IMG/VR virus record: IMGVR_UViG_3300021976_000006
Span: 30,232-94,231 of that record
From: a virus
Strand: one strand, 5' to 3'
DNA length: 64,000 nt
Shown here: piece after piece, positions 4,301-49,392 of the stretch
Layout of the letters: every line of letters begins with the position of its first letter
Numbering within the stretch: position 1 is the first letter of the stretch
The notes under the pieces: generated by a model
What the model was told of the DNA's origin: nothing
The model's input: only the letters and a program-made list of their open reading frames with translations
Database searches by the model: none
Program-made: the position numbers and the translations under genes

Positions 4301-5576
4301 ATACAGCATCTCTCATAAATGATCTATTGTCATCTATAAGATTGTTATTTCCTAAATTAACTAAATATGATGGACTAATAGAATGTTTTCTAGGAGCATC
4401 ATAAGGAACATCAAATGAATGTGGTGTATCAAAATCTATATCTACAGCAGCATTAATTATAGTATCATCTTCAAATACTACATTATCAGCTACATTATAT
4501 TGTACTGTAATATTATTAGCTAATGCTTGATAATTAATCTGAGAAGCTGCTAATTTAACATTACCTCTAATAAGTCTATTATCTTTCTGAGTAATAGCTT
4601 CTGAAGCATAATATTTAATAGTACCCACTATAACTTCATTTAGAGATATAGAATCATCTATCTCTCCTTCATTACCTGTATATATATAAGTATCTCTTGT
4701 AATAGGAATATTTTTTACTATTTTAATAGTATAAGTACCATCAATTAATGGTTTTATAATTAATAAATTATAGCTAGTAAAATTAGGATCTAATGTACTA
4801 TTAATTCCAAATTCTCTAAAATCTACTAGTATAGATTTGTTAGTAGGAGTTGGTATAACATCACCATCTACTAATCCAAAATCTTTATTAGTGTAAGAAT
4901 CTATAGGTCGACCATCAAAAAAATCATAATAATTCTCTGTAGCTATAGACATAGGTCTAGATATAGTTAATACAGATGTAGTAAATGTGTCTCCTAGATT
5001 ATAACTTACTCCTATATAATATTGACCACTAGTAATATTACCTCCATTATTTTGTACAATAGGAGATATAATAGGTCTAAGAGCTGTATCTCCAAGAGAT
5101 AATAATGCTATATCTAATCCTGTAGAATCTATATCTATATTAAGTAATCTATCATCATTTAATCCATCTACCCAATAGATAATACGTTGTTGCTTATAAT
5201 TAATTCTATAAGTACCTTTAATCTCATAATTATCTTGAAAATTTAATAGTAAAGAATCATATAATACAGTAGTTATATTTTTAGGAGGATTAATATAAAT
5301 GATCTTATTATAAGCTGTTTCTTCTTCTAAGTTTTTAATAAAAAGAACATACTCTTCTGTACCTAACCATATATAGCCAAGTATAGTAGTGTTTGTTTCT
5401 CCATTTGGTTTATAGTATAAACTAAAAGACTTCTCGTTGGTGCGAGAAGTTCTATCAGTTACTATATTATTAATTATAGTATTAAAAGCAAAAGAATATG
5501 AGTTTTTAGGTTGTTTAGTAGGATTATCTACTCTAACAAGTCCATTCTCAAATGTATTTACAGTTTTATTAGACAT
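1371..5576 (-). CDS. Tail stabilization/muzzle protein (crAss-like, P22 gp10-like)
   Basis: 1401 aa; motifs IYWVDGLN, FMRDAVYSFG, VFHIPGR, IRHHKMP, WISYHGYIP typical of the crAss-like stabilization protein; lies after the tail tubular gene. Confidence 0.8.
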   Translation of the reverse strand: MSNKTVNTFENGLVRVDNPTKQPKNSYSFAFNTIINNIVTDRTSRTNEKSFSLYYKPNGETNTTILGYIWLGTEEYVLFIKNLEEETAYNKIIYINPPKNITTVLYDSLLLNFQDNYEIKGTYRINYKQQRIIYWVDGLNDDRLLNIDIDSTGLDIALLSLGDTALRPIISPIVQNNGGNITSGQYYIGVSYNLGDTFTTSVLTISRPMSIATENYYDFFDGRPIDSYTNKDFGLVDGDVIPTPTNKSILVDFREFGINSTLDPNFTSYNLLIIKPLIDGTYTIKIVKNIPITRDTYIYTGNEGEIDDSISLNEVIVGTIKYYASEAITQKDNRLIRGNVKLAASQINYQALANNITVQYNVADNVVFEDDTIINAAVDIDFDTPHSFDVPYDAPRKHSISPSYLVNLGNNNLIDDNRSFMRDAVYSFGVGFELKDGTETEVFHIPGRLPDVIPGLGTKLGEYGRVYVPGGGWDTGISPDGNTWWRDRNTATDTGYLSYWRSNEVYPDGFGYPINGEQDSNGKSYIRHHKMPSDILHPLYTTIVGGDENAINTATDYQLTKWCIQLSFENIVIPAEYGDLIKKIKIFMTPRNESNKNILAKGLLQGTDQNDSFSPIEQTQQASGGTQSGARQFEFISPEVAFKFKQANISGYKLKVCGLDKGFINYIGYKRAADPTHAHYIYYYNNTASDESGRKQKIMNSAIPYLKRAVPKDEIYSRDIDKIIYIDNNFVGTSEGIALNFRQSQDTALLQLPVLSTLDIKPIGDPTLLADYYSDLDYPAGSNSATITMDGLKFADGVDPRWQDKSCYDTAYYISVINNNDSLYGQVQDLEYVEIGAARNFSFGIMEVFCRNGDTYIDMHHYKKTWGEAIPISSTINAINIKDSAPGGVVQVFEWGATTFGSFMCETDINIRMRREGSTLDEKYFPKSYLIDSTFESYTTANLRKEFYKIEIPYNNHYIKYYFANSTELADFGLLNDGIRYSTRIIYSDKQSLEDKIDNYRISRANNYRDLPLNRGPITIFFTRQDKLYTITRDSLYDVFASNQTIKSENADNIVVGTGEFLSIEPTELISIDGGYGGTTSKFSLVESPYGYLFVDRHKNKCFLFNEQLEDINILGLNEYFKLDIYKQFPQLELENGFDNPINDIGIIATFDPELKRLIVTKKDFELIDTTGTLTFVNGYIYRNGVKLDYNNPDVFENKSFTVSYDPISKKWISYHGYIPRLYISHNTDFLTYNYDNDLLKSNGEGYDTEFIIETVFNENPLYTKVTDSLNINAESFLGEQRLNDFFDTVLLYNDQQCTDVITLNGTNLTRKEKDWNINKFFDRSKEQSIKPLFSKSWNDIKNNYYVDKVVNPLAIDYNKPWYKLAKLRDKYLIVRFSYKSLVMSKIIVNFVNSIYKLSQR

Positions 5577-6785: not shown

Positions 6786-7457
6786 TTATTGTTCTGATGA
6801 AGCATCATTAGTATTTTTCTCTGCAATTTGTAAAAATAGATCTAGTTCTTTACTTTTTATTAAAGTATTAAGATCAGAAATCATTTTACCTGATATTGGA
6901 TATTTATCCACATCTGGATTATAACAAGATGATCCATCTACTTTAGTAAATATAGTAGCTTCTTTAGGATTACTAAATACACCTTCTATATTAATATACT
7001 TAAGTAGTGGGTTATTACAGCCTGTAATAAAAACATAACCATTGCTATAGTAAGCCAAGGGTTCTTTAGATGCATACTTATTATATTGATTCCATCTAAC
7101 ATTTGCTTTAGTTTTATATGGGTATCCTGATTGTTTATCTAATCCACCTATATAAGTAAATAGATCCATTTGATCTAATTCAATAGGTTGAGGAATAGTT
7201 TTTACTGTTCTAAATATATTATTACCAACAACTATAGTTCCAGGAGCAGCAGTATCTACTGCTTGTACTTCTACTTGTCCTAAATCTTGTTTAATATTAG
7301 AACTAATAGATCTACCTTTTTGTAATTGTTGTACAATTAACTTTTCTCGAATATAATTAATCATAAACTGTATTTGACGATCACTTATATTAAGATCATC
7401 AGGACGAGCTATTTTTATTAAATTCCTTATATTATATGTTAATTCTTGAATTGTCAT
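6786..7457 (-). CDS. Tail ring protein
   Basis: 223 aa, INIEGVFSNP ... YPI motif; position in the tail module. Confidence 0.55.
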   Translation of the reverse strand: MTIQELTYNIRNLIKIARPDDLNISDRQIQFMINYIREKLIVQQLQKGRSISSNIKQDLGQVEVQAVDTAAPGTIVVGNNIFRTVKTIPQPIELDQMDLFTYIGGLDKQSGYPYKTKANVRWNQYNKYASKEPLAYYSNGYVFITGCNNPLLKYINIEGVFSNPKEATIFTKVDGSSCYNPDVDKYPISGKMISDLNTLIKSKELDLFLQIAEKNTNDASSEQ

Positions 7458-9085: not shown

Positions 9086-11530
9086 TTAAACTGCTAATGT
9101 AAATGTTTTCTTAGACCAAACTGCTGTAGCCTCTCTCCGGTATTCTTCAAGTAACGCTCTAAAAGATATGACTGTACCTATTGGATAAGATGCTACTGGA
9201 TAATTAGTATTCAGATATGCTAATGTAACAGTTGGAGGACCAAACTCTATAGGAACAAACTTCATTGGATTGTAATCAGATGTAATGATAGGAATCCAGC
9301 CGGTATTATCTGCATTAGTAGCCTTAAACCAGAATGATGAAGAACCTGTACTAACTTTTCTTTGGTATGTAGATCCCTGTAATGCTGTTATAACTCCGTT
9401 AGGATCTGCGGCTGTACCAGCAAAATTAAACCCAACTTTAGCCCCACTTACAAATACAGGCGGATCATTGGTTATTGCTAAAGCAGTACCAGTTACTAAT
9501 CCTGTTGATGAGTTTAGCCAAATAGTATTTGTCAAAGGATAGATACGTTCTATGAAATATTGAACACCTACAGCCGTTGCGACAAGGACGTAATCACCAA
9601 CATTTAAGTCAACAACACTTGACATACCTGTTATGATTCTGCTTCCAGTAGTAACATTTCCTGTTACAGCTATTGCATGCGCAGTACCCGCCCTAGAACA
9701 GTTATAGATTAAATCATCTCCTGATGATGGCAGTCTAGAAAACAATAACTGACCCACATCATATGTTCCAGATGTTGGGGGTAATGTTGATACTCTTTTT
9801 AGACCGTCAGAATATATCTTATTAGAATACGCACTGCTACTTTTAGCTTCGTTCTCTAATGAAAGTACCTGAAACGATTTTAATCTGGTAAAACCAGATG
9901 GACTTCCTATCAATAACAAAATACTCTTAACCTCTGGTTTAACAGAGAAGTAAACCGGAACTATACTAGGGGTAGGAGTGCCTGTTAAATAACAACCGCC
10001 ATAATTTGTTGAATAGGCAAACGTTTGAACACCTTGATTATATTCTACAGAAGTATCTAACATACTAGTTGTACTTGAAGTTATCTCTTCTCCAAAATCA
10101 TCAAAAAACTTGACTCCGATTTGTCCAGCACTTCCTGATAATCCACTTCTTATGACAGCAAATTTATGTCCTGTATCAGTAGTTAGTCTGACAGCAAAAG
10201 CATTTCTTTTAAGTTCAACATATTGACCATTGCCTTTATTTAGAAGTACAGCATCTACATCACCGACAATAGGACTGATAGGTGCTGCAACTCCTGTAGT
10301 AAAATCAGCAAATAACATCCCACTACAAGTGATTTGATTGTTAGCATACCTAACAGATTTCTCACCTAAATTACCAGAATCGTAAATGGTTCTACCAAAT
10401 TGAGCTTCTGCATATAGATTCTGGGAGCTTATATATCTATTCTGTTTAGTCTCACTATTATCTTGTAAAGCATTAGCCTCTCTTGCTCTTTGCCTGTCAA
10501 AAGTATAAGCTACTTCAATAACGTTATTTCTTGAGTCATTATTTATAATAAATGCAGGACCCGGCGGACTCGTATTAACCATGGATGAATTACCTTCATT
10601 TCTACAGTTTAATATCTTAGAGTCAAAGGCCCTATCCATCACAACGGCCTGAGAGAATCCAGGAGCAGATGTTTGCCAACTTAGTTCAAACGAGGGGCTA
10701 TAGTAGATATTATCATCTCCATACATCCTTACGCCAACCCGAGTCTGTCCAGGTAAATACCCTGTAGTAGTGGTAAATCTTCCTCCGTAGAATTTATTCT
10801 CATTACACCATCCTATATTTTCACCGTCACTTATAGTATCTTGATATACTCCATACTTATTTGAGTTGATAAACTGTAAATATACCTTGTTATAGGCAAA
10901 TCCAGCCTTATCCCCCATACAAACAAGCCCTTTGTAAAACCCATCTATTTTCTCAATATAGACATCACAAGTATCTAGGTTTGTAAGTCTTATGCCTTCA
11001 TATGCTGTATTATCCCATGATGTTAAAGTTCTTGTAGCTCTTATATTGAGTTTCAAAACGTTATTCCTGCTTGCCACATCAGGAGTTCCATACGATAATG
11101 CAGTTCTATCCTGAGTCCCAGCATAGAACAACTGACCCTTCATTTCAACATTAATGTTATCTTTAATATTAAGCGTATCTGTTATTCTAAAGATATAACC
11201 AGTAGGGAATAGTAAAGTTGACACCCTTGAATTGGGATTACTACCTAATAAATAAGCGACATCAGAAGCTCTTTGTAATGCAGCAGTATCATCTGCAATG
11301 TTATCTCCAACTGCACCAAATAATCGTACATCAATAGTATCAGAATAATTTAATTTAAAATATTCTATTCCTAATTTTCTATATATAGGAGTAGTTAATC
11401 CAATAAATGCATCATCTATAGGAGTAACATTATCAGGTTGTAATGTAACTTTAGTATAAGTAGAAACTTCTTTTGTCTTACTATTAATTATATTTGTTAG
11501 AGTATCACCTACTCTTATATATTCTGCCAT
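9086..11530 (-). CDS. Tail spike, beta-helix depolymerase-like
   Basis: IDVRLFGAVGDNIADDTAALQ (Pectate_lyase_3-type N-cap) followed by beta-helix repeats. Confidence 0.75.
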   Translation of the reverse strand: MAEYIRVGDTLTNIINSKTKEVSTYTKVTLQPDNVTPIDDAFIGLTTPIYRKLGIEYFKLNYSDTIDVRLFGAVGDNIADDTAALQRASDVAYLLGSNPNSRVSTLLFPTGYIFRITDTLNIKDNINVEMKGQLFYAGTQDRTALSYGTPDVASRNNVLKLNIRATRTLTSWDNTAYEGIRLTNLDTCDVYIEKIDGFYKGLVCMGDKAGFAYNKVYLQFINSNKYGVYQDTISDGENIGWCNENKFYGGRFTTTTGYLPGQTRVGVRMYGDDNIYYSPSFELSWQTSAPGFSQAVVMDRAFDSKILNCRNEGNSSMVNTSPPGPAFIINNDSRNNVIEVAYTFDRQRAREANALQDNSETKQNRYISSQNLYAEAQFGRTIYDSGNLGEKSVRYANNQITCSGMLFADFTTGVAAPISPIVGDVDAVLLNKGNGQYVELKRNAFAVRLTTDTGHKFAVIRSGLSGSAGQIGVKFFDDFGEEITSSTTSMLDTSVEYNQGVQTFAYSTNYGGCYLTGTPTPSIVPVYFSVKPEVKSILLLIGSPSGFTRLKSFQVLSLENEAKSSSAYSNKIYSDGLKRVSTLPPTSGTYDVGQLLFSRLPSSGDDLIYNCSRAGTAHAIAVTGNVTTGSRIITGMSSVVDLNVGDYVLVATAVGVQYFIERIYPLTNTIWLNSSTGLVTGTALAITNDPPVFVSGAKVGFNFAGTAADPNGVITALQGSTYQRKVSTGSSSFWFKATNADNTGWIPIITSDYNPMKFVPIEFGPPTVTLAYLNTNYPVASYPIGTVISFRALLEEYRREATAVWSKKTFTLAV

Positions 11531-11541
11531 TTCTTATTTAT

Positions 11542-13770
11542 TTAAACTGTTGTTCCTGTTGCGTCTTTCCAAGCAGCACCCCACCACCAAATTGGTTTTT
11601 GAAGTGTGGTATCAGCATACTGTCTCCCTATGTCTGATGCTCCGTATGTTGGTCTTTGTGCGGTTGTCCCACTTACAATCATAGCGACCCTATCGTAACT
11701 TTGCCAAACACCAGAAGCATCTTGTACTTGTAACCACAAACTCCTTTTACTCACATCCCCAGCAGCGGCAGACATAAATAATTTAAATGAACCTCCTGTT
11801 GTCGCTTCTGCATTTGATCTATAATAAACACCACCACCAGAAGCAGCAGGGAAGTTAGTTGCACCTACACCGGCTATAAAAGGCACTGATTTCGCTCCTG
11901 CACTTAAAGTTGTTCCAGGAACATTCGTGTTGCTATCTGTAATAGATATGTAAGCACCCCATATTTTCTCCCAACCTGTATTACCAATGAAAGCTCTTTT
12001 AATATATAAGCCATTACCGGATGTGGCATCATCTGTCCTCAACCACAATGATCCGGGAGTAGCTGTTACAACGCTTTCTGGATCACCTGTACCACTTAAT
12101 ATTTTAGTATTACCATTTAGTGTAAATCCTGTTGTATTTAATGTAGCAGCATTTACATCACCTATAGATATTATATTACCAGTTTTATGATCAAATGTTA
12201 TTGTAGCAACAGCAGTATTATCTGCTTTATATAATGTTGTTTTATATAATCCACTTGTATTAGTATTTCTACCAATAGATACTCCTCCTTCAGCAGTAGA
12301 TATTGTAGGAGAATTTATAGATAGTATTGAAGTACTATTACCAGTTGCTGGATCATGTGTTACATCGATAGGAATAACAGATATGTTATTCTCTTTAATC
12401 CCTCTATTTTGAGCAGCAGCACCTGAGTTTGTATAAGTTCTATTATTTAAATATGGGTTTGTCCTTGCTACTATAATATCATTTTTAGCAGAATAACTAC
12501 CTAAAGTATTTATAGGTCTATTCATTGACACTATTTTAGCTAGAGGATTAACTGTATTTGGAGTAAAGAAATTACCATCAAAATTAATATGTATCATTGC
12601 TGGAGTAAAAGCATTATATACAACATATGTATTATTTACTCCTGTAGGATCATAACTAGAGGTAATTTGATTTTCTACAAATGTATTACCAGATATATTT
12701 ATAACTAAACCAGCATCTACTGAAGGTATAGCTTCTATAATATGTACTTGTTCTGTAGTATATATAAAATTCTCTTTAAGATTGAGAATACAATTTTGAG
12801 GAATATCCCCAGAATTACCTAGATTTCTAAATCTAATAAAGGCTTTAGTACCTGCTAAATCTTTACAATTAAATTCTAAATATCCTCCTGTTATATTTAA
12901 GACTTTACATCTACCAATATACATCATATAAGATCCATTTAATTCAAAGTAGCAATTTCTAAAATTGATAACTTCTCCTAATGATCCTGCATTGAATCCT
13001 ATTCCTATATTTAGAGAGAATTGACAAGCATTAAATAATGCTCCATTTGCTAAAGTTTCCCCTACACATAAAAATCCATTACTTGCTGCTCTTGAGAACA
13101 TACATGATTCAAATACAGCATAATAAAAAGCGCCTGTTATTACTATATTATTTCTAAATGAAGTAACAGATACATTTTCCATTCTACCACATACAAATTG
13201 ATCGATAGTAATACCATCTATATCAGTTCTTAAAGTGGCATTATTAAGATAAATATTATGAAATGTAGAATCAGCTTGTCCTGCTGGACATTGTATAGCT
13301 GTTGTATATACTATATCTTCCCCAACCCAATTAATTTTAACTAAACCATCAGCTTTACCAAAAGTAGATCCTCTACGAGATAATCTTCCTTGACCTTGAA
13401 ATTTAATTTGTTTATTACTTGTTATATTTAAAGTTTTAGATATATTATAAGTTCCTTGTGGAAATACTAAGGTTTTATTATTAATAGTATCAATGGCTTT
13501 TTGAATAGCATCTGTATCATCAGTAATACCATCTCCTTTAACACCAAACCATTTTACATTAATATCTAAATCAAATATTCTTTTAAATACTTCAGTGCCA
13601 TGTTCTACAGTTATCATCTGTCTGTAGATATATCCATCTAAAGTAATTCCTACTGGATTGGGAACTTTTATAAGTTCTATTAACTCACCAGTAATAGAAT
13701 CCAGTACATTAGATAATACTATATCTCCATTATTTTTAACTGTTCTAATAAATTGCTTTATTTCTGCCAT
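11542..13770 (-). CDS. Tail spike, beta-helix depolymerase-like
   Basis: INVKWFGVKGDGITDDTDAIQKAID; C-terminal GTTAQRP...PIWW...WKDATG module common in phage spikes. Confidence 0.75.
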   Translation of the reverse strand: MAEIKQFIRTVKNNGDIVLSNVLDSITGELIELIKVPNPVGITLDGYIYRQMITVEHGTEVFKRIFDLDINVKWFGVKGDGITDDTDAIQKAIDTINNKTLVFPQGTYNISKTLNITSNKQIKFQGQGRLSRRGSTFGKADGLVKINWVGEDIVYTTAIQCPAGQADSTFHNIYLNNATLRTDIDGITIDQFVCGRMENVSVTSFRNNIVITGAFYYAVFESCMFSRAASNGFLCVGETLANGALFNACQFSLNIGIGFNAGSLGEVINFRNCYFELNGSYMMYIGRCKVLNITGGYLEFNCKDLAGTKAFIRFRNLGNSGDIPQNCILNLKENFIYTTEQVHIIEAIPSVDAGLVINISGNTFVENQITSSYDPTGVNNTYVVYNAFTPAMIHINFDGNFFTPNTVNPLAKIVSMNRPINTLGSYSAKNDIIVARTNPYLNNRTYTNSGAAAQNRGIKENNISVIPIDVTHDPATGNSTSILSINSPTISTAEGGVSIGRNTNTSGLYKTTLYKADNTAVATITFDHKTGNIISIGDVNAATLNTTGFTLNGNTKILSGTGDPESVVTATPGSLWLRTDDATSGNGLYIKRAFIGNTGWEKIWGAYISITDSNTNVPGTTLSAGAKSVPFIAGVGATNFPAASGGGVYYRSNAEATTGGSFKLFMSAAAGDVSKRSLWLQVQDASGVWQSYDRVAMIVSGTTAQRPTYGASDIGRQYADTTLQKPIWWWGAAWKDATGTTV

Positions 13771-39259: not shown

Positions 39260-39629
39260 GGGGGTGCCTGGTTTTGACATTTAGTGATTATTATATTTTC
39301 AGCGGTTGGAAGCTTATATACAACCTTAAAATTTTAAGTAAACAATAACAGGCAAAACAATTAAATTGTCAGAAACAACTTTCAACGATATAATGCGTCA
39401 AGTATCTAACGTTGAATTAGAAATGGCTGCGTAAGCAATCATTAGATTAGGATATTAAGGGATTTTTAACCTTCAACTTAAAATTCCATCATTTTCCCAA
39501 TTTAGATTAGTGTAAATTGGATAACTTTTTCTAGGTTTTTTGAATAAAAATCTAGTTATTTTGTTAAAAGCTGTAACAAGAGATATAGTATTTTTTAGAT
39601 GGACAAGGGTTCGACTCCCTTCACCTCCA
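39260..39629 (+). ncRNA. ssrA: tmRNA
   Basis: 5' GGGGGTG pairs with 3' CACCTCC-A, including the G3.U70 Ala determinant. 5' ...TGGTTTTGAC and 3' GGAC-AAGGG-TTCGACT-CCCTT T-arm are present. Internal tag ORF 39351-39434 ends ...LEMAA*. Confidence 0.92.
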
Positions 39630-39808
39630 CGTAATACCCTGATTATCAATTAATTAGATAATATTCTACACGTTTGATTAGCGTTGGGATAAATAAATCG
39701 ATCTGCTTGTAGGCTCAAGGTAACCTTCAATAAATAATACAGGTGACACGTAGTCTTTGTACTCTCGGGAGTAACTGTATTATTATTTTAAACTTAAATT
39801 AAATAATT

Positions 39809-40285
39809 ATGAAAAAGAAATTAGAATTAGATGATCAAACTGCAAGATCAATATATAAAATAGCAGATATAGCAACTAAATTAGTATTAGAATCTAACTG
39901 GGGAAAAGAATTTTTTAGTGAAAAATTATCTGATAGAATTAAATCGTATGTAGATGTTTGTAAAGAATTATGTAGACCTATTTTAACAATAAAAGATTTT
40001 AAATTTTTACCTGAAAATCAAAGAGCTAAAGCTTTAGCAAATCACCAATGGGAAAATATTAGTGAATTATTTAACCAAGGATGGAAACCAGATTTTACAA
40101 ATATAAATCAAGCTAAATATTATGTTTGGTATGAAAGAAAATCTACTGGTTGGGTGGTGTGCTACTTCAGCGATCGGGGCTACTATTCTATCTGTGGGTC
40201 TGGTTTTTACTTTAAAGATTCAGAAACAGCTTTATATGTAGCTAATACATTTTTACCAATAATGACCATTATTTTAGAACCATAG
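39809..40285 (+). CDS. DGR target protein 1 (158 aa)
   Basis: Contains VR1 (40146-40211), matching TR1 except at adenines. Confidence 0.9.
   Translation: MKKKLELDDQTARSIYKIADIATKLVLESNWGKEFFSEKLSDRIKSYVDVCKELCRPILTIKDFKFLPENQRAKALANHQWENISELFNQGWKPDFTNINQAKYYVWYERKSTGWVVCYFSDRGYYSICGSGFYFKDSETALYVANTFLPIMTIILEP
40146..40211 (+). repeat. DGR variable repeat VR1
   Basis: 66-nt match to 40315-40380; 17 mismatches, 16 of them at template A. Confidence 0.93.
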
Positions 40286-40314
40286 GGTTACATATTTTAC
40301 TTATAGTTTTATAT

Positions 40315-40380
40315 CTAGTTAGGTAGTGAACTACTACAACAATCAGAACTACAATTCTAACTATGAGTCTAGTTTCTACT
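40315..40380 (+). repeat. DGR template repeat TR1
   Basis: Intergenic, AAC/AAT/TAC-rich copy of VR1 upstream of the RT. Confidence 0.93.
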
Positions 40381-40482
40381 CAATAATAAATACTAATATG
40401 AACCTCACCTCTTGGTGAAAAAAAGCGAAATCCAGAAAAGACATTAGTATATTAATAGAAAATGTCTTATGTTGAGTAAAAA

Positions 40483-41439
40483 ATGAAAAGAATAAATAAC
40501 CTCTATAATGATATTTGTAGTATTAATAATCTTATTCTAGCTGATAAAAAAGCTAGAATAGGAAAGTTAAAACAACTAGATATTATAAAACACGATAAAG
40601 CAAAAGGATGTAATATTTTAAAACTTCATAATATATTAATGGAGGAAAAATATAAAACATCTAAATATCATATATTTACTATATATGAAGGTAAGAAAAG
40701 AGAAATATATAAATTACCATATTATCCTGATAGAATAGTTCATCATGCTATTATGAATAAACTTGAATCTATTTTTGTATCTATATTTATTTCTAATACA
40801 TTTAATTGTATTAAAAATAGAGGAATAATGGGAGCTTATAAAGCTGTTAAAAAATCATTATTAGATATAGAAAATACTCAATATTGTTTAAAATTAGATA
40901 TAAGAAAATTTTATCCTAATATTAATAATAATATTTTAAAACTATTATTAAGAAAAAAGTTCAAAGATGAAAAATTACTAAAATTATTAGATGAAATTAT
41001 TAATAGTACAAAAGGACTACCAATTGGAAATTATTTAAGTCAATATTTTGCTAATTTTTATTTAACATATTTTGATCATTGGTTAAAAGAAATTAAAGGT
41101 GTTAAATATTATTTTAGATATTGTGATGATTTAGTTATATTATCTAGTAATAAGGAATATTTACATTTGCTATTTTTAGATATTCAAGATTATTTATCAA
41201 ATATATTAAAATTAGAAATTAAAAAAAACTATCAAATATTTCCAGTTAATATAAGAGGTATTGATTTTGTTGGTTATAAATTTTATCATAAATATATTTT
41301 ACTTAGAAAATCTATAAAGAAAAGATTCATTAAAGTTGCAAAATATAGTAAAGCTATACAATCATTAGCTGCTTATTTTGGATGGTTAAAATATTGTAAT
41401 AGCATAAACTTAAGAAATAAATATTTAAAAGATGAATAA
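40483..41439 (+). CDS. DGR-type reverse transcriptase
   Basis: YYPDRIVHHA, LKLDIRKFY, GLPIGNYLSQ (SQ signature of DGR RTs), YFRYCDD, GIDFVGY; 318 aa with no maturase, endonuclease or RNase H domain. Confidence 0.95.
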   Translation: MKRINNLYNDICSINNLILADKKARIGKLKQLDIIKHDKAKGCNILKLHNILMEEKYKTSKYHIFTIYEGKKREIYKLPYYPDRIVHHAIMNKLESIFVSIFISNTFNCIKNRGIMGAYKAVKKSLLDIENTQYCLKLDIRKFYPNINNNILKLLLRKKFKDEKLLKLLDEIINSTKGLPIGNYLSQYFANFYLTYFDHWLKEIKGVKYYFRYCDDLVILSSNKEYLHLLFLDIQDYLSNILKLEIKKNYQIFPVNIRGIDFVGYKFYHKYILLRKSIKKRFIKVAKYSKAIQSLAAYFGWLKYCNSINLRNKYLKDE

Positions 41440-41827
41440 GAAAGAAGCAGAAAAAGCTTTAAATAAGCTACAATTAGAAGTTAATAAACTCAGAGATATA
41501 ATAGATGCTCCTGAAAGTTTATTTGATATTACTACATATACAGAAGTATGTAAAAGATTAAATATTACAGAGAAGTCTTTAAGTGAATTTGAAACTCTTA
41601 AAGAGTATAGATACCATCAGATATTAAATATTCAGAAATTATTCAATGAAGATGCTGTAAATCCTAGATGGTATCCTTGGTTCTCTAGAACTGGTTCTGG
41701 TCTGGTTTTCTTCATTTCTTCCTGCTTCAGTGACTGCTACTATGGGCAGGTTGCTTACTTCAAAGATAAAAAAACCTCTGATTATATAGGTAAGACATTT
41801 AAATTTATCTATAACGATTTAAAATAA
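41432..41827 (+). CDS. DGR target protein 2 (131 aa), paralog of target 1
   Basis: Overlaps the RT stop; contains VR2; shares Y..VCK.L...F....HQ..NI..LFN....Y.W(F/Y)...YFKD..T..Y...TF..I with target 1. Confidence 0.9.
   Translation: MNKKEAEKALNKLQLEVNKLRDIIDAPESLFDITTYTEVCKRLNITEKSLSEFETLKEYRYHQILNIQKLFNEDAVNPRWYPWFSRTGSGLVFFISSCFSDCYYGQVAYFKDKKTSDYIGKTFKFIYNDLK
41689..41756 (+). repeat. DGR variable repeat VR2
   Basis: 68-nt match to 41846-41913; all 18 mismatches at template A. Confidence 0.93.
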
Positions 41828-41845
41828 TAATATAGGTCAATATTA

Positions 41846-41913
41846 AACTAGTTCTAGTCTAGTTTTCAACAATTCTAACTACAACAATGACAACTACAAT
41901 GAGCAAGTTACTT
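41846..41913 (+). repeat. DGR template repeat TR2
   Basis: Intergenic A-rich copy of VR2, distinct in sequence from TR1. Confidence 0.93.
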
Positions 41914-42041
41914 TTACTTTAACAATATTGATGTTGACCATAGCTCTTGCTAAAAAAATAAAATTAATAAAAAAGTCTTTAGTAATATTTATGAAAGAGA
42001 CTTATAAAAGTAAAATTAATATTAAAAACCTAAATTAAATA

Positions 42042-42530
42042 ATGAAGAAATTACTATACTTTGCTTATGGTAGCAATTTACTAAGTGCTAGATTAAGAGC
42101 TAGAATTGGTAGTGCTATCCATTTTAAGAACTATCGACTCAAAGACTATAAACTAACATTTGATTGTCAAGGATATGCTAATATACAAAGATCTATTGGA
42201 GATCATGTAGAAGGATGTTTATACAGTGTATCAGGTGAAGAATTAGCAATGTTAAATCAATATGAAGCTTTATATCATGCAGAGTTCTTTGAGTATGATT
42301 CTGATACTATAATTGCTATTTATATTGGTAATTATGAACCTGTTAAACACTCAAGAGTACATAATTTAGCTCCAATGAGAGCATACTTAGAAATTGTTAT
42401 GTTAGGTATGTTAGAGAAAGGATTAAAGCTATCTCATGACAAAGTTAAAAGGATTTATGATTCATTACCATTAGAAAGAGTTCATATTAAGTCTAACAGA
42501 AAAGCTAAACGCTTTAGAAAAAGAAAATAA
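42042..42530 (+). CDS. Gamma-glutamylcyclotransferase (AIG2/GGCT-like)
   Basis: YFAYGSNL...ANI...VEGCLY...LNQYE. Confidence 0.85.
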   Translation: MKKLLYFAYGSNLLSARLRARIGSAIHFKNYRLKDYKLTFDCQGYANIQRSIGDHVEGCLYSVSGEELAMLNQYEALYHAEFFEYDSDTIIAIYIGNYEPVKHSRVHNLAPMRAYLEIVMLGMLEKGLKLSHDKVKRIYDSLPLERVHIKSNRKAKRFRKRK

Positions 42531-43680: not shown

Positions 43681-44826
43681 ATGAAACAGTATAAATTAAT
43701 AAAAGAATATCCCGGATCTCTTAAATTAAATGTAAAAATACATAGAAACTTTGAAACAGGTTATGGATATAGCTGGGTTGGTGGAGGTATTATACATGGA
43801 GGATTAACAGATGAACATGTATATAATAATCCAGAATTTTGGGAGGAAATAGTTGAAAAAGATTATGAAGTATTAGCTATAATAGGAAATACATCTGGTA
43901 TAATTTACAATTTAGATGGTAATAAATTCATTGATAAAGATGGATATAAAATAACTAATTTTCCACATAATAATAGTGGTTGTAAAATTCTTACTGTAAA
44001 ACGCTTATATGATAATCAAATATTTATAGTGGGAGATGATATTCTTGAACAAAATGAACATTCTAAAATAGAATATTTTGAATTAAGAGGAGATGATTTA
44101 GTTTTAAGAATTAATCATCAGGTAACCAAAGGATCATCAACTATTGATATTAATAGTAAATTTGAGAAATATGTTCCTAAAGATTATGAGATATTATCTT
44201 TTAGAGATAAAAATGGTACTGGTATTTTTAAATCAGCATTAGTAATTAGAACCTCTAAAAATTTATTTGGTTGGGAATTTAACCAAACTGCTGGATATAG
44301 TACTGAAGAAGATATGTTATTAACTATTGAACAAAATGTATTTGAAATTCATTCAGTAAAAAGATTATCAGACGGAGAAGTATTTACTATCGGTGATAAG
44401 ATAGAAAATATAAAATATGATACTGTTCGAGGAAATATAAACAAAATAATATTAGAAGATGGTTATATTCAAATATGGTATAAATGTAATACAAATTCAT
44501 TTGATAGATTAGAAAATATATATATAATTACAAATCCATTATTCAAAACAGAAGACGGTGTTGATATATTTGTAGGTGATACTATTTATTGTGTATCTCT
44601 TTATTCATTTGCTTTATGGAATGGAAAAATGAGTACAACTAATTATAGAACTTATTATCATAAGAGAAATAAAACGTTTTCAACTAAAGAAGCAGCGGAA
44701 GAATATATTATAATGAATAAACCTTGTTTATCTTTAGAAGATGTGTATGGATGTACAGAAACACATTCTATGACACTTGCTGCATGTACTTTAACAAAAT
44801 TAGTAAAATCAAGAATATGCCAATAG
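43681..44826 (+). CDS. Hypothetical protein with internal domain duplication
   Basis: KDYE(V/I)L and VKRL.D...F.(V/I)GD each occur twice. Confidence 0.6.
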   Translation: MKQYKLIKEYPGSLKLNVKIHRNFETGYGYSWVGGGIIHGGLTDEHVYNNPEFWEEIVEKDYEVLAIIGNTSGIIYNLDGNKFIDKDGYKITNFPHNNSGCKILTVKRLYDNQIFIVGDDILEQNEHSKIEYFELRGDDLVLRINHQVTKGSSTIDINSKFEKYVPKDYEILSFRDKNGTGIFKSALVIRTSKNLFGWEFNQTAGYSTEEDMLLTIEQNVFEIHSVKRLSDGEVFTIGDKIENIKYDTVRGNINKIILEDGYIQIWYKCNTNSFDRLENIYIITNPLFKTEDGVDIFVGDTIYCVSLYSFALWNGKMSTTNYRTYYHKRNKTFSTKEAAEEYIIMNKPCLSLEDVYGCTETHSMTLAACTLTKLVKSRICQ

Positions 44827-47478: not shown

Positions 47479-49392
47479 GTGAGTGAGGAAATAAAAGATA
47501 GAAAAACGTTTGTATATGATATTGAAACAATTAAATCAGTATTCACGTATACAGCTATTAATATCGATACACTAGAAATAGTAAAATATGTAATACATAA
47601 AGAAAGAAATGATTTATTTTTATTAATAAAACATTTAAAACAATGTAAAGGATTAATTGGATTTAATAATCTCAATTTTGATTATCCAATAATACATATG
47701 ATACTAACAGATCATATTGATTGGTTAGATTTTTCTAATGAAGAAGTAATTGATATTATATATAGAAAAGCTCAATATATAATTAATGGTCAAAATCAAG
47801 AAGGATTTTTTCCTTCAATAAGAGATAAAGAAGTTATAATTCCACAACTAGATTTATTTAGAGTTTGGCATTATAATAATAAAGCTAGAATGACATCATT
47901 AAAATCTTTACAGATTAGTATGAATTATCCAAATGTATTGGATATGCCTATTCATCATAGTAAAGAAGATGTAACTATAGAAGAAGTAGAAGAAATTCTA
48001 AAATACAATCTTAATGATGTGCTATCAACTTTTGAATTCTATAAGAAATCAATTGAGAAAGTAGCATTAAGAAAACAAATACAAGCTAAATATAAAATAC
48101 CTTGTATTAACTATAGTGATAGTAAAATAGGTGAAAGCTTATTATTAAGTTTATATAGTAATCAAACTGGTGAGAATTCTTGGGACATTAAGAAATTAAG
48201 ATCTTATAGAAGTTCAATAGCCTTTAAAGATATTATACTAGACTACATTAAATTTGAATCAAAAGAGTTCAATGAACTACTAAGTTATCTAAAGAACAGA
48301 ACAATAACAGAAACTAAAAAAGCTTTTGAAAAATCTGTAAGATATAAGGGATTTCAATATGATTATGGTACTGGTGGTATTCATGGCTGTATAAAATCTG
48401 GAGTGTATGAATCTGATGATAAATATATAATAATAGATGCTGATGTCGCTTCTCTATATCCTAATGTAGCAATTAAGAATAGAATGTACATAGAGCATCT
48501 AGGAGAGACTTTCATTGATCTATATGATAAAGATATAGTACAAGAAAGATTAAGAGCTAAGAAAGCAGGAGAGATGTCTATTTCAGATGCTCTTAAGTTA
48601 AGTGCTAATAGTGTATATGGTAAATCAAATGATGAGAATAGTTTTCTCTATGATCCTAAATATACTATGGCTACAACTATTAATGGTCAATTATTGCTAA
48701 CTATGTTAGCAGAGATGATTGTTGATGGTGTTAAAGATATAACAGTACTTCAGGTTAATACTGATGGTATAACTGTTAGAATTCCTAGAGAACAACAAGA
48801 AGTATACTATGCTTATTGTAAAGAATGGGAAAAGAAAACTAATTTAGATTTAGAATATGTTGAATATTCTAAAATGGTAATTAGAGACGTCAATAATTAT
48901 ATTAGTGTTAAATTAGACGGTAAAACTAAAAATAAAGGTGCTTTTGAAATTAATAAAATAGTTGGTAATGAACCAGCTTATCATAAAGATAATAGTTTTA
49001 AGGTAATACCTATTGCTATTGAGAAGTATTTTGTTGAAGGAATTCCTGTTTCTGATACTATTTATAATCATAAAAATATATATGATTTTTGTGGTAGACA
49101 GAAATTTGGAAGAGATTCATCAGGAGAAATTCATTATCTTGAAAATTCTACTATTAAAATAGAAAAACAACAAAAGAATGTTAGATATTATATATCTAAA
49201 TCTGGAAAATCCTTTGTAAAGAAATATACAAAAGGTTCAAATGAGGCAATAAATAAAGGATTTCAAGTTGAAATCTTTAATGAATATATAGAAAAAGATA
49301 TTAAAGATTATAATATAAATTATAGTTTTTATATTAATGAGGCATATAAGATTATATATGCTGTTCAAAATGATCAAATAGCACTTTTATAA
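47479..49392 (+). CDS. DNA polymerase family B
   Basis: Exo I YDIET, FNNLNFD, DVASLYP, KLSANSVYGK, NTDG. Confidence 0.93.
   Translation: MSEEIKDRKTFVYDIETIKSVFTYTAINIDTLEIVKYVIHKERNDLFLLIKHLKQCKGLIGFNNLNFDYPIIHMILTDHIDWLDFSNEEVIDIIYRKAQYIINGQNQEGFFPSIRDKEVIIPQLDLFRVWHYNNKARMTSLKSLQISMNYPNVLDMPIHHSKEDVTIEEVEEILKYNLNDVLSTFEFYKKSIEKVALRKQIQAKYKIPCINYSDSKIGESLLLSLYSNQTGENSWDIKKLRSYRSSIAFKDIILDYIKFESKEFNELLSYLKNRTITETKKAFEKSVRYKGFQYDYGTGGIHGCIKSGVYESDDKYIIIDADVASLYPNVAIKNRMYIEHLGETFIDLYDKDIVQERLRAKKAGEMSISDALKLSANSVYGKSNDENSFLYDPKYTMATTINGQLLLTMLAEMIVDGVKDITVLQVNTDGITVRIPREQQEVYYAYCKEWEKKTNLDLEYVEYSKMVIRDVNNYISVKLDGKTKNKGAFEINKIVGNEPAYHKDNSFKVIPIAIEKYFVEGIPVSDTIYNHKNIYDFCGRQKFGRDSSGEIHYLENSTIKIEKQQKNVRYYISKSGKSFVKKYTKGSNEAINKGFQVEIFNEYIEKDIKDYNINYSFYINEAYKIIYAVQNDQIALL

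Follow-up and report, generated by a model that had tools for sequence, protein, structure and literature searches.

The 64,000-nucleotide window analysed here (positions 30232-94231 of the complete, 94,231-bp virus record IMGVR_UViG_3300021976_000006 in IMG/VR) carries a real DGR (diversity-generating retroelement) which, to judge from its sequence, is probably active in this phage. We consider it reasonably probable, taking the explanation as a whole, that this is an Avd-less DGR of the crAss lineage, placed in the early gene block, which diversifies two small intracellular hypervariable binders. The absence of Avd is already known for the lineage. What is new here lies in the targets, a recurrent, DGR-diversified family of small unannotated proteins whose fold is apparently not that of C-type lectins (CLec).

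The element lies on the plus strand, between a transfer-messenger RNA (tmRNA) gene and a GGCT-like gene, in the order target 1 (T1), template repeat 1 (TR1), spacer, reverse transcriptase (RT), target 2 (T2), TR2 and spacer. The open reading frame (ORF) for T1, a soluble member of the small family, spans 39809..40285 and encodes 158 amino acids. Its variable repeat, VR1 (40144..40211), corresponds to about residues 113-135 and pairs with the non-coding template TR1 (40313..40380). The gap of 102 nt between TR1 and the RT leaves no room for an ORF, as the initial annotation had remarked, and is filled by a structured two-hairpin spacer RNA (40401..40482). The RT of 318 amino acids (40483..41439) is followed by T2 (41432..41827, 131 amino acids), which is supported as a target by its ORF, the family profile search and a structural model. 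The T2 ATG overlaps the RT stop by 8 nt, so that the overlap described earlier holds. VR2 (41688..41757) covers about residues 86-109 of T2, in the model the second hairpin strand and the next loop. Its partner TR2 (41845..41914), a second and different template, lies downstream of T2 and is trailed by a second spacer RNA (41930..42012) with the same two hairpins. The description in the initial annotation turned out to be right on every checkable point, since the ORFs, the TR/VR pairs, hydropathy, the flanking genes and the search for Avd all agree with it.

Both TR/VR pairs have the hallmarks of a DGR. The VRs lie inside coding targets near the C-terminus, the TRs are intergenic, and the differences between them fall almost solely on TR adenines. 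VR1 differs from TR1 at 17 of the 24 TR adenines, with one or two non-A differences at the edges; for VR2 and TR2 the count is 19 of 27, with a single non-A difference. As adenines make up about 35-39% of the TR bases, arithmetic on these counts puts the chance of all-A mismatches of this size at about 1e-8. A scan of the whole 94,231-bp genome, with TR adenines treated as wildcards, found exactly one VR per TR and no VR in any tail gene. The run of roughly 23-24 invariant codons that had been noticed after each VR was counted as 24 codons in T1 and 22 in T2. Read in the VR frame, both TRs are rich in AAC/AAT codons. In the same frame, TR1 has a TAG (40322-40324) where VR1 has TGG (40151-40153), the codon for Trp115 of T1, and an unmutated template copy would therefore truncate the protein. 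Glycines that are conserved in the family (G88, G90 and G105 in T2; G114, G130 and G132 in T1) are AGT or GAG in the template and always appear as GGT or GGG.

The element 3' of both TRs consists of a 4-bp hairpin with a TCTT-type loop, a run of A, and an 8-bp hairpin that encloses a conserved GTA...GAA. We aligned the spacers of 15 TR units. Two are those of the window, 11 belong to related viral contigs, and the other two come from Suoliviridae in which the target is a classical tail protein. In this alignment 87.8% of the cells are paired and 10 of the 12 pairs show compensatory changes. Pairing as high was not reached in any of 500 shuffles, and slid registers also came nowhere near it. 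With regard to the RNA families RT-18 and RT-17 of Rfam (RF03021, RF03020), the first spacer (40406-40482) matches RT-18 over the whole model (44.6 bits, against a gathering score of 41.3). The second spacer did not reach E<=0.01 against Rfam, and is recognised solely by its alignment and covariation with the 14 other TR-downstream spacers. Since the same covarying spacer trails both TRs, each TR is a self-contained DGR RNA. We infer that the spacer is the obvious candidate for recognition by the RT in the absence of Avd.

The RT matches phrog_1423 (E=7e-99) and PF00078 (E=1.7e-14). It carries the motifs IGNYLSQ (GxxxSQ) and YCDD, which are invariant in the RT alignment and place it in the DGR clade. 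Amino acid identity to the RTs beside related cassettes is 51-64%; compared with the RTs of Suoliviridae and crAssphage LMMB, identity is about 67-70% at the nucleotide and 55% at the amino acid level. The LMMB RT has been placed in lineage 3 of Wu et al. (PMC7290462), which characteristically lacks avd and has a target-TR-RT core (PMC5758913). By RT similarity and this core, the RT described here is best grouped with the crAss/Bacteroides lineage 3, Architecture A. No Avd gene had been visible in the initial annotation, and a search of the complete 94-kb genome with the Avd models PF05635 and TIGR02436 likewise gave no match at E<=10. Nor does the cassette leave unoccupied space in which an additional ORF would fit. 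PF05635 is also unmatched in five related viral records, three of them complete. The suggestion of an accessory-independent RT thus fits both lineage 3 and the related records. The premise that phage DGRs need Avd or another accessory factor was too strong, as 29% of catalogued DGRs have no accessory gene, and no distant avd was found in those genomes (Wu et al., PMC5758913). In Zeta crAss-like phages, Avd has been reported in two genomes only (PMC12386605). As the RT lineage is published as Avd-less, the lack of Avd is ordinary.

Taken together, these results show an intact DGR of the Avd-less crAss/Bacteroides lineage that has moved to the early/replication block of its crAss-like phage, with a single RT for two self-contained RNA units, each made of a TR and the conserved two-hairpin spacer. 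Adenine-mutagenised cDNA of TR1 would rewrite about 20 codons of T1, and that of TR2 about 20 codons of T2. In the explanation that we favour, the RT would work without Avd, presumably by direct recognition of the spacer RNA. The targets would be made with the early/replication genes, with which they are likely co-transcribed. They would be soluble hypervariable binders, whose place of action would most likely be the interior of the infected cell, in the conflict between phage and host, and not the tail tip.

The genomic setting is in line with this proposal. The minus strand of the window carries a block with TerL (terminase), portal, MCP (the major head protein) and tail-spike-like ORFs (9086-13770), and the plus strand carries a DNA polymerase (47479-49392) and other replication-type genes. 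From these module positions, the targets lie about 26 kb from the tail ORFs and are co-oriented with the replication genes, which bears out the earlier placement of two proteins of 158 and 131 amino acids on the early/replication strand, more than 25 kb from the tail spikes. The major head protein shares 45-50% identity with its counterparts in Suoliviridae-type crAss phages, and the G+C content of the window is about 24-30%. A scan for sigma-70 promoters gave counts at chance level, and no plus-strand terminator was found inside the cassette.

Related cassettes recur in other viruses. Ten viral contigs encode relatives of T1 or T2, seven of them with an adjacent full RT and clean TR/VR pairs. 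The arrangement of the window (target-TR-RT-target-TR) is found in four of these seven, namely L003, L004 and the near-identical pair L010/L011, and the overlap of RT and T2 recurs in L003 and L004. In the remaining three (L005, L007, L008), a single TR is accompanied by two or three small targets, all upstream of the RT. Neighbours of the cassettes include a DNA polymerase, helicases, a sliding-clamp-like protein, a metallophosphoesterase, a repressor-like gene and phrog_11079, which is also found near the cassette of the window. The early/replication placement that had been described for the window is thus repeated in the relatives, beside polymerase, helicase, clamp and repressor genes. In every genome examined (about 13), the family lies outside the structural module. 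Two loci, L006 and L009 (a complete genome of 96.9 kb with terminal repeats), have kept a T2-like target and a TR, with the RT reduced to a C-terminal remnant of about 33-43 amino acids (33 in L009). As target and TR persist despite this reduction, the target gene is maintained for its own sake.

The L010/L011 pair shows that this type of cassette is active in nature. Although the two contigs were recovered from different metagenomes, only 30 of their 10,324 positions differ. Half of these differences (15 of 30) lie inside the 74-nt VR (6796-6869) of the target downstream of the RT, 13 of the 15 at TR adenines. The other VR (5201-5282) is identical in both. It is this concentration of the differences at the TR adenines of a single VR that argues for activity.

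The paralogy of T1 and T2 extends over nearly the entire proteins (33% identity over 130 residues, E=1e-10), and both are mildly basic, with an isoelectric point (pI) of about 8.3. Hydropathy gives no transmembrane (TM) or signal-like segment in either, the maximal 19-residue Kyte-Doolittle means being 1.29 for T1 and 1.01 for T2, as expected from the earlier statement that the targets lack such segments. The N-terminal part of T1 matches phrog_11581 (E=3.6e-12). Word-based searches find few close homologs of T1 and T2; a profile search yields 938 clusters at 50% identity (E<=1e-3), 175 of them at E<=1e-10. Family members are nearly all 115-190 amino acids long, with a few tandem doubles. Judged by these searches, the targets belong to a large, previously unnamed family of small phage proteins. 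Pfam searches with T1 and T2, 141 family members, nine locus paralogs and ten longer or tandem forms gave only sub-threshold matches, below the gathering score. A profile search of the PDB with the family gave no credible match, and T1 and T2 have no sequence similarity to annotated structural PHROGs.

Structure prediction of the individual targets, which had been proposed in the initial annotation, was successful in part. The AlphaFold2 (AF2) model of T2, from an alignment of 141 sequences, is confident, with a predicted local distance difference test (pLDDT) score of 94.5. The T1 model, from seven sequences, is unusable (pLDDT 61), and the fold of T1 is taken from its paralogy to T2. The T2 model begins with a long N-terminal helix of 23 residues, which is followed by two more helices, then by a beta-hairpin and a loop, and it ends in another pair of helices. 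With five helices and one beta-hairpin, it is not a four-helix bundle. The columns of highest entropy in the family correspond to T2 residues 94-104, and this variable core is framed by conserved Gly90, Phe93 and Gly105 and by a YFKD...GK.F..IY tail. In the model, the variable stretch is a beta-strand and loop held between conserved helices. A Foldseek search of the PDB with the T2 model found nothing at E<=0.001. A VIA fold search had a best Z of 3.7, with a root mean square deviation (rmsd) of 3.5 over 64 residues, and a second look gave a best Z of 2.2. The neighbours of the model in BFVD and the ESM Atlas are uncharacterised phage proteins only. No chain with a C-type lectin fold, as carried by the DGR variable proteins Mtd, TvpA and TaqVP, was present in the Foldseek and VIA lists, although absence from these lists does not exclude a CLec fold. 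Comparison of the family with the CLec-type tail target of the Suoliviridae phage cr60_1 by hhalign gave a probability of 0.2%, although Suoliviridae members of the family have about 22 VR residues in common with the CLec-type tail protein. The T2 fold is apparently not recognisable as CLec or immunoglobulin (Ig), and unlike any solved structure that was matched. Annotatable variable domains of DGR targets have been systematically linked to C-type lectin folds, and cryptic CLec variants were expected for unannotated VR domains (Roux et al., PMC8144416).

A tblastn search with T1 found three hypothetical proteins of Suoliviridae and nothing else, and the same search with T2 against GenBank phages gave no match. 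The Suoliviridae members identified by T1 and by the profile are encoded among runs of small ORFs, at a distance of 46-59 kb from the RT of the DGR. Three of them have a VR, namely gp86 of cr60_1 (L013:4980-5387), gp09 of cr56_1 (L014:1480-1887) and gp88 of cr115_1 (L018:2370-2738). In all three, the VR matches the 3' portion (about 60-65 nt) of the only TR, which is adjacent to the RT, and the mismatches fall almost solely on adenines. In cr60_1 and cr56_1, the same TR diversifies a tail protein of 414 amino acids that resembles Mtd and sulfatases; in cr115_1, the proximal target is cut off by the end of the linear record. The small member and the tail protein share the VR pattern SGLLCVGSHL.PG.A.A..GT, over about 22 VR residues. 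We found no mention of such a remote small target in the crAss DGR literature that was searched, and a remote second target of the tail-protein TR appears to be previously unreported. There is no homolog of the Mtd-like tail target in the genome of the window, so that the DGR described here serves the small proteins only. The annotated tail target of cr60_1 (L002:1460-2701, 414 codons) has one in-frame stop at codon 32 under code 11. The codon might be recoded, it might be an error of sequencing, or the true start might lie further on.

The placement outside the structural modules, the co-orientation with replication genes, the lack of an export signal and the precedent of Quimbyvirus lead us to favour an early, non-virion role for T1 and T2, and we put the chance that the targets are intracellular binders at close to even. 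Several points weigh against the favoured explanation as a whole. The sharing of a TR with an Mtd-like tail protein in Suoliviridae fits a surface-binding or virion-associated role too. Phage crAss001, for which virion proteomics has been published, has no family member by profile search, and its virion proteome is therefore uninformative. Assembled contigs of a possible source sample (two runs) showed no VR variants, although contigs cannot reveal rare ones. The fold claim comes from a single model, that of T2, in view of the poor model for T1. Moreover, in crAss-like phages the position of a gene says little about when or where its product is made. The small proteins might alternatively be extracellular or virion-associated adhesins. 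In that case the N-terminal helix would anchor them to the particle or let them oligomerise there, or else lysis would set them free, and glycans on the host surface would be the ligands of the variable loop. The DGR would then adapt the host range as in BPP-1, with unusually small receptor-binding modules encoded outside the structural block. The 23-residue N-terminal helix of T2 would suit such a role, viral DGR targets are mostly tail proteins (Roux et al., PMC8144416), and in cr60_1, cr56_1 and cr115_1 the family member is served by the very TR of the Mtd/sulfatase-like tail protein, with a VR motif common to both. Against this stand the roughly ten cassettes and three Suoliviridae copies, all of which lie outside structural modules and have replication genes or small early-type ORFs around them, the absence of a signal peptide or TM segment and of similarity to annotated structural PHROGs, and the negligible hhalign score of the family against the cr60_1 tail target. 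On this evidence, we regard adhesins as rather unlikely, if worth keeping in mind.

The initial annotation had also raised the possibility that T2, in view of its start within the end of the RT gene and its coiled-coil-like N-terminus, also acts as the accessory protein in place of Avd. The overlap, which recurs in L003 and L004, suggests translational coupling, and the mildly basic character of both target proteins would be compatible with this idea. The arrangement is not conserved, however, as the relatives with a single TR carry their targets upstream of the RT and have an unrelated phrog_19665 ORF after it. RTs of this lineage in Suoliviridae work although 46-59 kb separate them from the small target, and the T2-like gene survives the loss of the RT. 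Moreover, T2 is not modelled as a four-helix bundle, and a constantly rewritten protein would be an unlikely obligate cofactor. Since the RT/T2 arrangement is not conserved and the gene outlives the RT, we consider an accessory function of T2 highly improbable. Complex prediction for RT and T2 gave scores of 0.00 and 0.03; as controls were absent, this result counts neither way. The cassette could finally be a relic, diversified in the past but no longer active in the phage of the window. Decayed DGRs are common among crAss-like phages (PMC7290462, PMC11054128), L006 and L009 have RT remnants only, and no variants were seen in the available contigs, with the limit on rare variants given above. 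In the window, however, the RT has a full-length ORF in which the catalytic motifs are present, non-A decay is essentially absent from the two TR/VR pairs, and both spacer RNAs keep their pairing. We therefore judge this possibility to be improbable.

The ORF of about 102 amino acids that matches phrog_19665 lies directly 3' of the RT and overlaps it in the single-TR relatives (L005:7233-7538, L007:5934-6245, L008:7861-8169). It could be a lineage-specific accessory. As an alternative accessory for the DGR described here it was discarded, as there is no homolog in the genome of the window.

Among known systems, crAssphage LMMB and the Suoliviridae phages cr60_1, cr56_1 and cr115_1 (lineage 3, PMC7290462) are closest. 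They share the related RT, the TR-spacer-RT core, the two-hairpin spacer and the lack of avd. Their proximal target is a Mtd/sulfatase-like (CLec3-class) tail protein of 414-486 amino acids, which is encoded beside lysis and structural genes and is absent here. They also have one TR unit, whereas the phage of the window has two, with two small early-block proteins as the only targets. The Bordetella phage BPP-1 system (Mtd, Avd, bRT) has in common with the present DGR the adenine-specific transfer from TR to VR in the C-terminal part of the target, the AAC/AAT-rich template and a structured spacer downstream of the TR. In contrast, BPP-1, of the Avd-dependent Architecture B, needs pentameric Avd, a four-helix-bundle protein for which the genome of the window has no homolog, and its target is a trimeric tail-fibre tip with a C-type lectin fold, for which our fold searches gave no match. 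The G+C-rich initiation of mutagenic homing (IMH) element of BPP-1 has no counterpart in the AT-rich element of the window.

The Quimbyvirus DGR has a second, non-structural target in a defence-related island, which has been read in terms of phage-host conflict (Benler et al. 2021, PMC8008677). There, a single TR serves one structural and one distal target, a situation also seen in the Suoliviridae phages above. The distal target of Quimbyvirus has a C-type lectin domain, whereas the family described here is much smaller and has no recognisable domain. Quimbyvirus also has a structural target, and the phage of the window has none. Cassettes of crAss-like genomes with several TR-VR pairs and Avd likewise have more than one pair per RT. 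Their targets, however, are tail-fibre proteins that contain CLec and Ig-like domains, and non-A decay is seen in the additional pairs. The window has two clean pairs, with a separate spacer RNA for each TR.

Phage DGRs are regarded as host-range devices that act on tail proteins. If it is true that T1 and T2 act intracellularly, phage DGRs would have a second function, in the intracellular conflict between phage and host. A more specific version, about which we are doubtful, is that the T1/T2 family is an intracellular, antibody-like repertoire of binders on a scaffold that is not recognisably CLec, made early and tuned by the DGR against variable host factors such as defence sensors. CrAss-type phages would then diversify attachment, through the tail protein, and intracellular coping, through the small protein, in parallel, sometimes from one template. 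For binder engineering, the family would be of interest as a natural scaffold of very small size in which about 10-20 positions can be randomised. The cassette, with a compact Avd-free RT and a TR-spacer unit that is present twice, is a candidate minimal DGR.

Both genes that flank the DGR are as the initial annotation had them, a tmRNA region and a GGCT gene. The tmRNA gene (39260..39632, plus strand) was detected by ARAGORN and by Rfam RF00023 (58.7 bits, E=2e-21). It sits directly upstream of T1, outside the DGR proper, and its predicted tag has 27 residues. An annotated tmRNA is also found about 1.5 kb from the family member of cr60_1, so that the tmRNA is a recurring neighbour of the small-target family in crAss phages; in cr115_1, a tRNA-Leu lies near the family member. 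Downstream of the second spacer, and again outside the DGR, follows the gamma-glutamyl cyclotransferase-like (GGACT/GGCT) gene (42042..42530, plus strand; PF06094, E=3e-7; phrog_2520). Read-through of TAG codons, which would extend T1 into TR1, was considered and rejected, as the only tRNA that ARAGORN finds in the genome, apart from the tmRNA, is tRNA-Met, and long ORFs are intact under code 11. The internally repeated phrog_11079 protein, with two matched stretches, is encoded within 2-3 kb of the small-target cassette in two phages (43681-44826 in the window, and L010:3479-4783). The only public runs that contain the phage of the window are labelled as soil metagenome, and the closest annotated relatives come from human faeces.

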